A stretch of 64,000 nt of DNA. It comes from an uncultured Chloroflexia bacterium (GTDB lineage Bacteria > Chloroflexota > Limnocylindria > Limnocylindrales > CSP1-4). The number at the start of each line of letters is the position of its first letter. Position 1 is the first letter of the stretch. The notes below the pieces were generated by a model that saw only the letters and a list, made by a program, of their open reading frames with translations, made no database searches and was not told the DNA's origin. A program made the position numbers and the translations under genes. The stretch is from positions 103,966 to 167,965 of the forward strand of contig CAVQNC010000010.1 in NCBI GenBank assembly GCA_963713795.1. Direction: 5' to 3'. This document shows, in pieces, positions 49,656 through 62,941 of the stretch.

Positions 49656-49770
49656 GGGAGCCGTCGGGTCGCGCTGGCGGCCTGGGCTCGGGCGAGGCGC
49701 GGCTCGGCGCCGGCCGCGGTTTCCCGGGGCGGCCAAGCGCGCCCGGGGCGTGTCCCGCCCGGAGAATCGA

Positions 49771-49799
49771 AAAGGAGCCCGAGTGACCGGGCTCCTTCT
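49771..49799. terminator. Bidirectional intrinsic terminator AAAAGGAGCCCG-agtgac-CGGGCTCCTTCT between the convergent add and zinc-ribbon genes
   Basis: 8-bp GC stem flanked by AAAA on one side and TTCT on the other; on the minus strand it is followed by TTTT. Confidence 0.65.
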
Positions 49800-49814: not shown

Positions 49815-50198
49815 TTAGTACGAGCGGGAGCTCGAGCTTCGCTGGCTGGTGAAGCAGTCGCTGCAGTAGACCGGCTTCGCGCCGCTGGGGCGGAAGGGGA
49901 CCTGGGCCTCGCGGCCGCAGCTGGAGCAGGTGGCGCTGAACATCTCGCGCGGGCCGCTGGAATAGCCGCCCGAACCGCTCGAGTAGCCGCCGCCGGAGCG
50001 GCCGCCGCCTGAGTAGCCACCGCTCGAGTACCCGCCGCCACCGGCGTCACCGCGCGATGCCTTGCGGGCTGCGCGGCACGAGGGGCAGCGCCGTGGCTCG
50101 GTGAACTGCCGGTCCGCGTAGAACTGCTGCTCGCTCGCGGTGAACGAGAACTCCTGGTTGCAGTCGGCGCAGGTGAGCGTCTTGTCTTGTCCGTACAA
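49815..50198 (-). CDS. FmdB-like double zinc-ribbon protein with a central Gly/Tyr/Ser/Arg-rich low-complexity linker
   Basis: TTG start 6 nt after GAAGGAG. N-terminal ribbon CADC...CPSC with the FmdB-like pattern TCADCNQEFSF...RCPSCR. Linker GGGGYSSGGYSGGGRSGGGYSSGSGGYSS. C-terminal ribbon CSSC...CSDC. Confidence 0.6.
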   Translation of the reverse strand: MYGQDKTLTCADCNQEFSFTASEQQFYADRQFTEPRRCPSCRAARKASRGDAGGGGYSSGGYSGGGRSGGGYSSGSGGYSSGPREMFSATCSSCGREAQVPFRPSGAKPVYCSDCFTSQRSSSSRSY

Positions 50199-50297
50199 AG
50201 AAAAACTCCTTCTCTTGCGGCCTCAGCGAACCTTTCTCGCCGAGTACCGATGAGAGGGAGTGGTCGTAGTGCCGCTATTGAATTAGCACCAATCCGG

Positions 50298-50337
50298 TGG
50301 TCGAAAGACTATACCACAGGCCGCCGCGTCTGTCGAA
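50298..50337 (-). promoter_or_regulatory. Near-consensus sigma-70-type promoter on the minus strand (-35 TCGACA, 17-nt spacer, extended -10 TGGTATAGT) with an adjacent perfect 10-bp palindrome CGAACGTTCG
   Basis: Plus-strand coordinates: -10 at 50298-50303, TGG at 50304-50306, -35 at 50321-50326, palindrome at 50328-50337. Lies about 100 nt upstream of the zinc-ribbon gene start. Confidence 0.5.
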
Positions 50338-50537
50338 CGAACGTTCGTGGATGGGTGGGCGGTCTTCCGCTGGCCGATCGTCGCCTTGACCCCCGGCCTT
50401 GCCTTCTGGACGGGTGTCCATTCCTGGGCGGCTCAGAGGGAAACGCCTCGTGTCATGACACGCGTTCCATCGCCGACACCCCCGGCGCGCATACCTCCCG
50501 CCGACCGAGCATTTCCTGCTAGGATTCGGCCCTGCCC

Positions 50538-50613
50538 GCTGGCGAGTGGCCTAACGGTAAGGCACCTGACTCTGGATCAGGGGATTGAAGGTTCGAATCC
50601 TTCCTCGCCAGCC
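50538..50613 (+). tRNA. tRNA-Gln: tRNA-Gln (anticodon CTG)
   Basis: Cloverleaf read by eye: acceptor stem GCTGGCG/CGCCAGC, D-arm TGGCCTAACGGTAAGGCA, anticodon stem CCTGA/TCAGG with loop CTCTGGA, T-arm GGTTCGAATCC. Confidence 0.8.
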
Positions 50614-50723
50614 AACTTGTGAGCGAGAGACAGGCCCCCGGAGGCAACTCCGAGGGCTTTTCTTGTTGCCCAGTGGCGAACGTAAGGCGCGCCGTCTATC
50701 CTGGGTCGACAGGTGGATGTCCC

Positions 50724-60949: not shown

Positions 60950-62941
60950 ATGAGCGCCGCCGAGGATCCCGCGCGCCTGCTCGGAGACCTCAATCCCTCG
61001 CAACGCGAGGCAGTGACGACGACATCCGGCCCGCTCGCGATCGTCGCCGGGGCCGGATCCGGCAAGACGCGCGTCATCAGCCGGCGTGCCGCCTACGCCG
61101 TCGAGACTGGCGCGACACCTGCCGACCAGGTCCTGCTCGTCACTTTCACCGACAAAGCTGCGGGCGAGATGGTCGAGCGGATGACCGCGCTGGGACATCG
61201 GGGCGTCATGGCCCGAACCTTCCACGCCGCAGCCCTGGCCCAGTTGCGCCACTTCTGGCCGGGCAGGCACGATGGGGACCAGCTGCCCGCGATCCTGGAC
61301 TCGAAGCTGCGGCTCCTGGTGCCGCTGATCAGCCGCCTGCCGGGCGGATACCGCTTCACGCCGGCCAGGGACATGGCGGACACGATCGAATGGGCGAAGG
61401 TTCGCCGCATCCGGCCAGAACGCTGGGTCGGCCAGGGCGGTGACCGGGCGCCGATCCCAGCCGACCTCTTCGCCCGGGCCTATCGCGACTACGAACGTGC
61501 GAAGGCGAAGGCAGGCCTGCTGGACTTCGAGGACATGCTCGTCGAGACCGTACAGCTCCTCGAAGACGATTCCGACGCCGCCGCCCTCGTCCGGTCCCGC
61601 AAGTCCTGGTTCAGCGTCGACGAGTACCAGGACACCAACCCGCTCTCGGAGCGGCTGCTCGAGCTCTGGCAGGGCGAATCACGAGACCTGGCGGTCGTCG
61701 GCGACCCGGACCAGACGATCTACACGTTTACCGGCGCTACGCCGGAGTTCCTGCTCGGCTTCGCCGAGCGCCACCAGAGCGCGCGCGTCGTCACGCTGAC
61801 CGACAACTACCGTTCCAGCCCGCAGATCCTGGAGCTCGCGAATCGTGTCTCGGCGGGAGGCCCCCGCGGCCCGCTGCGGGCGACCAGGCCGGACGGACCC
61901 CCGCCGACCGTCAGGCGTTTCCCCGATGCCGAGGCCGAGCGGGCGGCCATGGTCGAGTGGCTCAGAACGGTGGCGGCGGCCGGCGTGGCCCCGACCGAGA
62001 CGGCCGTGCTGGTACGGATGAACGCCCAGCTGCCGGAGATAGAAGCCGCGCTGACGCGGGCGGGCGTAGGGTTCACCGTCCGCGGTCAGCAATTCTTCGA
62101 TCGTCGGGAGATACGCGAGGCATGTCAGCTGATTCGGCGGGAGCGGCCGGCCGAAACCGGGGCCGGGCTCGTCGCCGCGGTCGAACGGCTGTTCGTCGAG
62201 CGCCTGGGGCTGGACGACGTGGCCGCCGATGCGGGCCCCGAAGGACGCGATCGAGCGGCCTCGCTCGAGCTTCTCCTCGGCATCGTCGACGACCTCGCCT
62301 CGGCCGACACCGGGCTGACCATCGACGCCGCGCTCGCCGAGGTGGATCGCCGCCGGGCGGCGGAGGCGGACGCATCCGCCGGCGGCGTGAACCTGCTGAC
62401 TTACCACCGGGCCAAGGGCCTCGAATGGGAGGCCGTCTACCTGCCGGCTCTCGACGAGGGCGTCCTGCCAATTCGCCAGGCGAAGGAGGACGAGGAAGTC
62501 GCCGAAGAGCGCCGGCTGCTGTACGTTGGGATAACCCGCGCGCGGCGGTTTCTGGCGCTTTCGTCGTCGTCGCGCCGGCCGTCGCGGTTTCTGGCGTCGG
62601 TCCAGCCGGCGCGGCCGGCGGCGCGACCAGCGGCGCGGCCCGGGGAGCGGCCGGAGCGACCCGCCTCGAGCCGCGTACGAGTACTGCCCGGCCCGCCGGA
62701 CGCCACGGCCGCCGTCGCCGACGACTCGCTGGTCGAGGCGCTCCGCCGCTGGCGACGCGAGCGCGCGGCGGCCGACGGCGTGCCCGCTTACGTCGTCGCC
62801 CACGATGCGACGCTCCTCGAGATCGCCGATGCGCGCCCGCGAACGCTGCCCGCGCTCCGCCGGGTGCGAGGCATGGGCCCGGCCAAGCTCGAGCGATACG
62901 GCCCGGAGATCCTCGCCCTGATCGATGGATCCGAGCGGTAG
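60950..62941 (+). CDS. UvrD/PcrA-family DNA helicase with C-terminal HRDC domain (UvrD2-like)
   Basis: Walker A GAGSGKTRV; UvrD motifs (TFHAAAL, VDEYQDTN, GDPDQTIY, YHRAKGLEWEAVY); C-terminal HRDC-like segment DDSLVEALRRWRRERAAADGVPAYVVAHDATLLEIA. Confidence 0.8.
   Translation: MSAAEDPARLLGDLNPSQREAVTTTSGPLAIVAGAGSGKTRVISRRAAYAVETGATPADQVLLVTFTDKAAGEMVERMTALGHRGVMARTFHAAALAQLRHFWPGRHDGDQLPAILDSKLRLLVPLISRLPGGYRFTPARDMADTIEWAKVRRIRPERWVGQGGDRAPIPADLFARAYRDYERAKAKAGLLDFEDMLVETVQLLEDDSDAAALVRSRKSWFSVDEYQDTNPLSERLLELWQGESRDLAVVGDPDQTIYTFTGATPEFLLGFAERHQSARVVTLTDNYRSSPQILELANRVSAGGPRGPLRATRPDGPPPTVRRFPDAEAERAAMVEWLRTVAAAGVAPTETAVLVRMNAQLPEIEAALTRAGVGFTVRGQQFFDRREIREACQLIRRERPAETGAGLVAAVERLFVERLGLDDVAADAGPEGRDRAASLELLLGIVDDLASADTGLTIDAALAEVDRRRAAEADASAGGVNLLTYHRAKGLEWEAVYLPALDEGVLPIRQAKEDEEVAEERRLLYVGITRARRFLALSSSSRRPSRFLASVQPARPAARPAARPGERPERPASSRVRVLPGPPDATAAVADDSLVEALRRWRRERAAADGVPAYVVAHDATLLEIADARPRTLPALRRVRGMGPAKLERYGPEILALIDGSER

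Follow-up and report, generated by a model that had tools for sequence, protein, structure and literature searches.

A candidate LexA-type operator and a conserved structured leader RNA upstream of a two-module zinc-finger gene in Limnocylindria

A small zinc-finger gene in a 64-kb stretch of contig CAVQNC010000010.1, from an uncultured bacterium of the Chloroflexota (the whole stretch of DNA analysed, referred to below as the window), looks damage-inducible and translationally locked, and not simply abundant. The gene is the following:

49815..50198, minus strand: coding sequence, 127 aa, with a TTG start codon (50196..50198) and a TAA stop codon.

Upstream of it, a 14-bp inverted repeat, candidate for a LexA-type operator, overlaps the promoter, and a leader of about 100 nt, a conserved structured RNA in which the Shine-Dalgarno (SD) sequence is paired, lies between the promoter and the start codon. 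Taken as a whole, the reading of the gene as a doubly gated cassette, made of an SOS-type box and a locked leader, is one that we consider moderately probable. What is new here is the candidate LexA-type operator preceding a gene of this protein family, thus a candidate SOS gene in Chloroflexota, the leader RNA, which falls outside the Rfam families, and the combination of both with a non-AUG start. An initial annotation of the same DNA, made from its letters, had described a strongly expressed, repressor-controlled protein. Every sequence element that it listed is present in the window; the structured leader, which fills the ~100 nt separating promoter from start codon and is conserved more than any other non-coding feature, was missed.

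The promoter and the candidate LexA-type box

The elements upstream of the leader are:

50308..50336, minus strand: sigma-70-type promoter, with a -35 TCGACA (50336..50331), a 17-nt spacer and an extended -10 TGgTATAGT (TG at 50316..50315, hexamer at 50313..50308).
50334..50347, minus strand: 14-bp inverted repeat CGAACgttcGTTCG, candidate LexA-type (Cheo/SOS) operator, whose final 3 nt are the first 3 of the -35.

The promoter had been called near-consensus, and indeed it agrees with the consensus at 10 out of 12 positions and carries the TG extension, with 0.1 such sites expected in the 1.4-kb region scanned. When both strands of the window (69% GC) were scanned, no other site reached 10/12. 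The end of the -10 lies 109 nt from the start codon and the predicted transcription start is near 50302/50301. The motif TGnTAnnnT is kept in the orthologues at the same distance from the leader, and the distance from promoter to start codon is 105–132 nt in nearly all loci.

In the aligned upstream regions of the orthologues, the conserved element adjoining the promoter is a 14-bp CGAAC-N4-GTTCG, to which CGAACgttcGTTCG conforms at 10/10 arm positions, and it overlaps the core promoter. A perfect 10-bp palindrome, CGAACGTTCG (50338..50347, 1 nt from the -35; found once in the window versus 0.14 expected), had originally been proposed as the repressor site. The presence of a repressor site at the -35 is supported, while the unit under conservation is the 14-bp box and not the shorter palindrome, which is an accident, since the spacer in the window happens to be GTTC.

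The box was searched for in the window and 160 related loci (designated below by L numbers), amounting to 810 kb in all. Nine perfect CGAAC-N4-GTTCG boxes were found, against 0–2 in shuffled sequences, and eight of them lie at -146..-159 from the start of the orthologue, in the window and in L002, L005, L017, L081, L093, L097 and L152 (for the last, the position was inferred, the start codon being mis-called). The N4 spacers differ among boxes (GTTC, ATGT, ATTC, ACGC, AGAC and GAGC). Boxes with one mismatch occupy the same promoter position in L011 and L021, and half-site relics are left in L003, L091, L098, L089 and L008. Arms that stay fixed while spacer and flanks drift indicate selection by a putative dimeric DNA-binding protein. 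The expectation that these elements would be conserved in related genomes was thus borne out for the promoter elements in the orthologues and for the box at its eight perfect sites; from the other clades the box is absent.

In Firmicutes and Actinobacteria, the motif recognised by LexA is GAAC-N4-GTTC, and variants of it are reported in Chloroflexi (PMC4951493). The box described here shares with such operators (the Cheo box; Bacillus, Mycobacterium and Dehalococcoides) the identical 14-bp palindrome, the position over the promoter and a spacer free to vary; unlike them, it is a candidate operator, confined to one sub-lineage. A site over the -35 is a classic position for a repressor and, to our knowledge, LexA is the only characterised regulator binding exactly this palindrome. 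We predict LexA control of the window copy, and consider it probable. We know of no zf_Tbcl protein, the family to which the product belongs (see below), described as an SOS gene, and the present gene would then be a new member of the regulon.

A less likely alternative is that some regulator different from LexA binds the box, or that the box is a relic in decay and has lost its function, in which case the gene would stand outside the SOS response and the leader would be its only real control. No SOS core promoter of the lineage was found within the 810 kb: signatures of lexA, recA, uvrA and uvrB gave no match in the window and the 160 loci, as searched by regular expressions and by tblastn with queries from E. 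coli and B. subtilis. Moreover, many close orthologues (e.g., L003, L004 and L008) lack the box or have it in degenerate form, and all the other clades manage without it. Against this alternative stand the two 5-nt arms, perfect in at least eight genomes despite drifting spacer and flanks, the published assignment of the motif together with the lack of any other characterised binder known to us, and the repressor position over the -35.

Two further occurrences of the box are reported here for completeness. A second perfect copy in the window, CGAACggctGTTCG (62182..62195), lies 1.2 kb inside an open reading frame (ORF) for a UvrD-like helicase (60950..62941, plus strand), where about 0.06 copies would be expected per 64 kb, as scaled from the shuffle counts; its position inside an ORF led us to reject it as a promoter operator, and it may be due to chance or be an internal LexA site. 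A box with one mismatch, CGAACTTGCGCTCG, which recurs downstream of the gene (L049, 3506..3519, and the same place in about 15 clade-2 loci), belongs to the conserved coding region of a convergent PlsY-like gene and was likewise discarded as an operator.

The structured leader and the pairing of the Shine-Dalgarno sequence

The elements of the leader, listed from its 5' end, are:

50199..50301, minus strand: whole 5' leader, ~103 nt, a conserved structured cis-regulatory RNA.
50287..50299, minus strand: P0, 5'-proximal hairpin, CACC/GGUG with loop GGAUU; weak here, 5–8 bp in relatives.
50271..50275, minus strand: 5' strand of P1, GCGGC, pairing with 50217..50221 in a helix that crosses the anti-SD:SD helix.
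50252..50261, minus strand: anti-Shine-Dalgarno (anti-SD) strand, ACUCCCUCUC.
50246..50249, minus strand: 5' strand of P3, CGGU, pairing with GCCG at 50218..50221, where it competes with P1; GC/AU/GU variation.
50222..50244, minus strand: P2 hairpin, CUCGGCGAG-AAAGG-UUCGCUGAG, with core GCGA/UCGC.
50217..50221, minus strand: GCCGC, 3' strand common to P1 and P3.
50205..50214, minus strand: Shine-Dalgarno region, GAGAAGGAGU, paired to the anti-SD.
50199..50204, minus strand: U-rich tract UUUUCU immediately after the SD helix, spacer between SD and start codon and possible U-tract of a terminator.

The SD sequence itself, GAGAAGGAG (50214..50206), ends 7 nt before the TTG. The minimum free energy (MFE) fold of the window leader is a long irregular hairpin, composed of anti-SD:SD, P3 and P2, with an energy of -39.3 kcal/mol (z = -2.6). 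In the window, the anti-SD:SD helix contains one C.A mismatch, deriving from matching one-base insertions on both strands with respect to the clade having ACUCCUCUC/GAGAGGAGU.

About 150 loci of Limnocylindria have the leader ahead of this gene. A covariance model, designated R1, was built from the hand-named structure, leaving P1 out, and scored the window leader at 60.6 bits (E 1e-15), with no second copy in the window. In the first set, related to the training of the model, 80/81 sources gave a strong R1 hit (78 at E<=1e-7), a single one in each locus and in every case adjoining the gene on its upstream side, and the leader was recovered also in 71 of the 80 metagenome loci that were independent of model building. 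It accompanies all the paralogous clades and was not found at any other place in the ~0.8 Mb of related sequence. Among distant homologues, it is absent from L162, L163, L165 and L167 and present in the closer homologue L164. RNAalifold, run on the raw MAFFT alignment, recovered the P2 core only.

Paired cells amounted to 92.2% and 92.7% in the two sets, versus 34–47% when the partners were slid by 1–3 columns. The covariation score was 0.33 and 0.37, against 0.13–0.14 in shuffles, none of 500 of which reached the observed value; these counts include inherited changes and are not event-based statistics. All eight modelled pairs of P0 change on both sides across loci. The pair types of P1 are UA:40/CG:28 and AU:38/GC:29, and 94.8% of its cells are paired in the independent set. 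The outer pair of the anti-SD:SD helix covaries as AU:56, GC:8 and CG:3. In the core of P2, three of the four pairs are strictly invariant and the A-U is present in 71/77 rows, the closing pair alternates between CG (52) and GU (21), and the apical part is variable. No match at E<=1 was obtained in Rfam 15 with the leader of the window or with those of eight other loci. The leader is a conserved structured RNA with covariation in four helices, as is proper of cis-regulatory leaders in general.

The window leader also contains a 5-codon upstream ORF (UUG GUG CUA AUU CAA UAG; 50276..50293, minus strand) within the P0 region, the sequence of which is not conserved in relatives, and the ORF is thus probably meaningless. 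In L051 (2536..2610, plus strand), L059 (2543..2615) and L066 (214..278), a riboswitch aptamer of the c-di-GMP-I-GGC type (RF03167, 69.3 bits versus a gathering score of 59) is located some 260 nt ahead of the leader that belongs to a paralogous zinc-finger gene. Control of the zinc-finger gene by this aptamer was rejected, as it appears to serve a separate 35-aa hydrophobic ORF (L051, 2622..2729) having its own SD and a downstream hairpin.

Pairing of the SD is predicted for nearly all the leaders. Across 149 distinct leaders, the predicted probability that the SD GGAG is unpaired has a median of 0.0002 and lies below 0.01 in 140, compared with a median of 0.35 when the upstream sequence is shuffled; for the window leader the value is 0.001 at 37 °C. 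In 142/149 leaders, the MFE fold pairs GGAG with a CUCC. The spacer following the SD helix contains 65% T, versus 15% in the rest of the leader. Start codons were GTG in 81, TTG in 63 and ATG in 16 out of 160 loci. Such a usage of GTG and TTG, far above normal, suggests selection for a weak or factor-dependent initiation. The ribosome-binding site, formerly listed among the strong expression signals, is correctly located as a sequence, and its SD is predicted to pair with the anti-SD in essentially every orthologue.

As P1 shares the 3' strand of P3 and crosses the SD helix, P1 and the anti-SD:SD helix must be alternatives to each other or else combine into a pseudoknot. For the window leader, imposing P1 and leaving the SD free carries a penalty of 12.6 kcal/mol with respect to the closed state.

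This arrangement might be that of a metabolite or ion riboswitch, or of a transcription attenuator, in which the hairpin and U tract would terminate, P1 would close an aptamer and the ligand-bound form would prevent termination and free the SD. Two mutually exclusive helices with a common strand are indeed the architecture of an expression platform, the SD-containing stem is stable and followed by the U tract, and the invariant nucleotides of P2 and of the joining regions could make a binding pocket. On the other hand, riboswitches usually control also transporters or enzymes, whereas the present motif is limited to one gene family and is missing from distant homologues; the apical part of P2 varies, the putative aptamer would consist, unusually, of one helix with a large one-sided loop, and the function of the gene suggests no ligand. 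We regard this explanation as unlikely and, because in about 0.8 Mb the motif is found only at this gene family, a gene-specific control would be favoured over a metabolite riboswitch.

A reading in line with the initial annotation is, instead, that of a constitutively strong and abundant RNA-binding protein of FmdB-like/RGG type, with an unspecified repressor acting through the 10-bp palindrome. The best sigma-70 match in the window, a strong SD sequence, an efficient-looking terminator and a real low-complexity linker speak in its favour. Nonetheless, the SD is sequestered in 140/149 leaders, 90% of the start codons (144/160) are non-ATG, the conserved box is the 14-bp one, and the product neither scores as FmdB nor carries RGG repeats (see below). 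Abundance is not supported, given sequestration and start codon usage, and the picture as a whole appears quite improbable.

Likewise, we consider highly unlikely that the leader is an RNA thermometer and the gene one of heat- or cold-shock type, comparable to cspA and to the cyanobacterial rbp genes. The leader is long and conserved, with a paired SD, and the domain logic of the product resembles that of cold-inducible Gly-rich RNA-binding proteins. Yet in silico the SD-unpaired probability does not exceed 0.05 from 10 to 65 °C in ten leaders representing all clades, at variance with thermometers of ROSE or fourU type, and the helix is G+C-rich, of 9–10 bp and combined with stacked helices, far more stable than those of melting thermometers. 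A melting thermometer is therefore unlikely and was rejected in silico, given an SD closed up to 65 °C; the leader could conceivably act as a cspA-like co-transcriptional cold switch.

The encoded protein and its genomic setting

The 127-aa product, identical to that of the public gene call at 49815..50198, is organised as follows:

50052..50189, minus strand: N-terminal Cys4 module, residues 4–49, PF13451 zf_Tbcl (E 2.5e-18).
49950..50051, minus strand: disordered Gly/Ser/Tyr low-complexity linker, residues 50–83 (predicted local distance difference test, pLDDT, below 50 for residues 50–80).
49839..49949, minus strand: C-terminal Cys4 module, residues 84–120, PF23477 zf_Tbcl_2, corresponding to TIGR04272 CxxC-x17-CxxC (E 7e-19 and 5e-19, respectively).

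The cysteines follow the pattern C10-x2-C13...C38-x2-C41 and C91-x2-C94-x17-C112-x2-C115. All eight, plus many neighbouring residues, are invariant among 40 homologues, in agreement with the protein with two CxxC...CxxC ribbons foreseen by the initial annotation. The gene is real, conserved and encodes a small protein with two Cys4 modules. The zf_Tbcl profile gave 66.2 bits (cut-off 24), covering profile positions 1–47 of 48, and zf_Tbcl_2/TIGR04272 gave 67.6 bits (cut-offs 27 and 36), with the CxxC-x17-CxxC spacing present; the N-terminal module was modelled as a beta-hairpin followed by a helix (pLDDT 74–87). On the contrary, the assignment to FmdB was rejected, Zn_ribbon_8 (PF09723) reaching 10.7 bits (E 0.57) versus a cut-off of 34.4. 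Members of FmdB/Zn_ribbon_8 (PF09723, TIGR02605) are also small CxxC...CxxC proteins, and differ in the spacing and in the residues surrounding the cysteines. A defence or phage origin was rejected as well, as PADLOC and PHROGs models returned nothing meaningful against the protein, with no E-value below 0.002.

With respect to PF13451 and PF23477/TIGR04272, the window protein is a plain member, matching end to end, and its architecture with a Gly-rich middle is common to thousands of proteins. The same two-domain architecture was found in 6879 proteins by a word-indexed search, and the family comprises 11,595 clusters at 50% identity (exhaustive search, E<=1e-3). The assignment is to a known and uncharacterised family, of which the window protein is an ordinary member. 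The nearest relatives are all from Chloroflexota metagenome-assembled genomes labelled Limnocylindria or Limnocylindrales, several of which contain two paralogues (L001/L003, L051/L056, L025/L071 and L049/L064), each with the leader and in differing promoter contexts. Among distant relatives, P0121, P0122, P0131, P0141 and P0142 are built of 3–5 tandem units, each made of an RG/RS-rich segment and a CxxC-x17-CxxC module, and two of these five proteins end in long Lys/Ala-rich, histone-H1-like tails.

Two small CxxC-x17-CxxC proteins of Methanosarcina mazei, with no function assigned, bind zinc as determined by inductively coupled plasma mass spectrometry (PMC12704099), and in the literature no further experimental work on the family was found. 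They have in common with the window protein the C-terminal Cys4 module; being single-module proteins, they are devoid of the zf_Tbcl N-terminal module and of the G/S/Y linker. The cysteines of the window protein would bind zinc in turn. Distant relatives combining the module with RG/RS-rich segments and, in some cases, with Lys-rich tails provide the best, though indirect, argument that the protein most likely binds nucleic acid (ssDNA or RNA) during stress. A role mainly as zinc buffer, storage protein or metallochaperone, to which two Cys4 sites in 127 residues and zinc binding by the M. mazei proteins would lend themselves, is very improbable, in view of the RG/RS-rich and Lys-rich segments, typical of nucleic-acid binders, of a LexA-type operator that makes little sense for zinc homeostasis, and of the upstream sequence, in which, as read, no AT-rich Zur-type box was evident (no dedicated Zur-motif scan was run).

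The linker, GDAGGGGYSSGGYSGGGRSGGGYSSGSGGYSSGP, consists of 50% G, 26% S and 12% Y, with one R, in a single GGGR. In 153 orthologous linkers the composition is kept (G 49%, S 19%, Y 12%, R 4%) and the length is not, ranging from 15 to 53 aa; their aromatic residues have a median spacing of 6. No RGG or GGR occurs in 129 of these 153 linkers. Thus, of the RGG-type linker previously suggested, the disordered low-complexity nature is retained and the RGG character is not: the segment is a G/S/Y low-complexity one with regularly spaced aromatics, and not an RGG region.

Comparable proteins are found among Gly/Tyr-rich nucleic-acid-binding stress proteins, such as the Rbp of cyanobacteria, GRP7 of plants, CIRP/RBM3 of mammals and the low-complexity domain of FUS, the cold-inducible Gly/Tyr-rich RNA-binding ones being the nearest analogues in the design of the protein. 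The window protein resembles them in joining a folded module to a disordered G/S/Y segment, with tyrosines about 6 residues apart, and in the long conserved 5' untranslated region (UTR). It differs in having Cys4 zinc fingers in place of an RNA-recognition motif or a cold-shock domain, and in being without RGG repeats, so that the relation is one of analogy and not of homology.

Downstream, the transcription unit is closed by the following element:

49770..49797, minus strand: intrinsic terminator, with stem GGAGCCCG/CGGGCUCC (extendable by A-U pairs), loop GUCACU and then UUUU.

It had been described as a textbook terminator, and its folding energy of -23.4 kcal/mol (z = -3.98), which none of 200 shuffles equalled, is that of an intrinsic terminator. 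This hairpin is kept in L003, L004, L005 and L081. An automated terminator scan missed the hairpin at 49770..49797, probably because the extension of the stem consumes the T run. An adenosine-deaminase gene lies downstream in convergent orientation. On the other side, a divergent tRNA-Gln(CTG) gene (50540..50614, plus strand) is found about 190 nt upstream of the box; a tRNA-Gln(CTG) is upstream of the orthologue also in L081, L091 and L098, and farther off in L003 and L005. No conserved partner gene was found; the other neighbours are rearranged in close relatives and the tRNA-Gln alone recurs. Having its own promoter and its own terminator, and neighbours that differ among close relatives, the gene is a self-contained monocistronic cassette.

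A model of double gating

In the model that we propose, LexA would be cleaved after DNA damage and the promoter would fire. The leader would then fold so that the anti-SD ACUCCCUCUC pairs with the SD region GAGAAGGAGU, enclosing P3 and P2, and the ribosome-binding site would be closed by default; the hairpin with its U tract may also terminate transcription, by attenuation. P1 (GCGGC/GCCGC) would compete for the same 3' segment and is taken as the putative open state. Opening would need a gene-specific trans-acting factor, for which our best guess is a feedback through the encoded protein or through the nucleic acids bound by it, processing being another possibility; a small-molecule ligand or temperature is thought less likely as the opener.

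The closest analogues in mechanism are leaders locking the ribosome-binding site, found in tisB, which is SOS-induced, in E. coli adhE, which is opened by RNase III, and in the SD-sequestering platforms of riboswitches. The present leader would share with them a default-off state, in which a long-range helix buries the SD, and with tisB also the control by LexA. Unlike tisB, whose product is a toxin, the gene described here encodes a soluble zinc-finger protein, and its leader matches no Rfam family.

Some points weigh against double gating as proposed. The box is patchy, being present with at most one mismatch in 8/70 loci with >=85% domain identity and in 0/76 below, and any SOS control is therefore limited to a sub-lineage. 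Its recognition by the LexA of this lineage would be an extrapolation from other phyla. P1 could also form at the same time as the anti-SD:SD helix, in a pseudoknot, instead of alternating with it. Finally, the energy model predicts a closed SD without any factor, so that an autoregulation by the protein as repressor would not be needed, and any feedback could run in either direction.

A bolder extension of the double-gating model would see in the protein a bacterial counterpart of FUS-like damage-response proteins, induced by damage and condensing on damaged DNA or on RNA with the linker as 'sticker-spacer'. Its synthesis would be gated by a riboregulator of a new class, widespread in uncultivated Limnocylindria, which could be either a riboswitch responding to a damage-related signal or a feedback element to which the protein itself binds. 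We consider this quite improbable, and offer it as speculation. If the linker drives condensation, the protein would be a compact bacterial model for the biology of low-complexity domains.

For the interpretation of such genomes, the strong promoter, locked SD and non-AUG start, when considered together, show that a protein cannot be called abundant on the strength of expression signals that look like the consensus. The leader, for its part, makes a well-supported candidate for a cis-regulatory RNA family not described before, in a lineage that is abundant in soil and freshwater, uncultivated and almost unstudied as to gene regulation. For the protein family, which counts more than 11,000 clusters at 50% identity and no known function, the LexA-type operator provides the first testable functional lead, pointing to the DNA-damage response.

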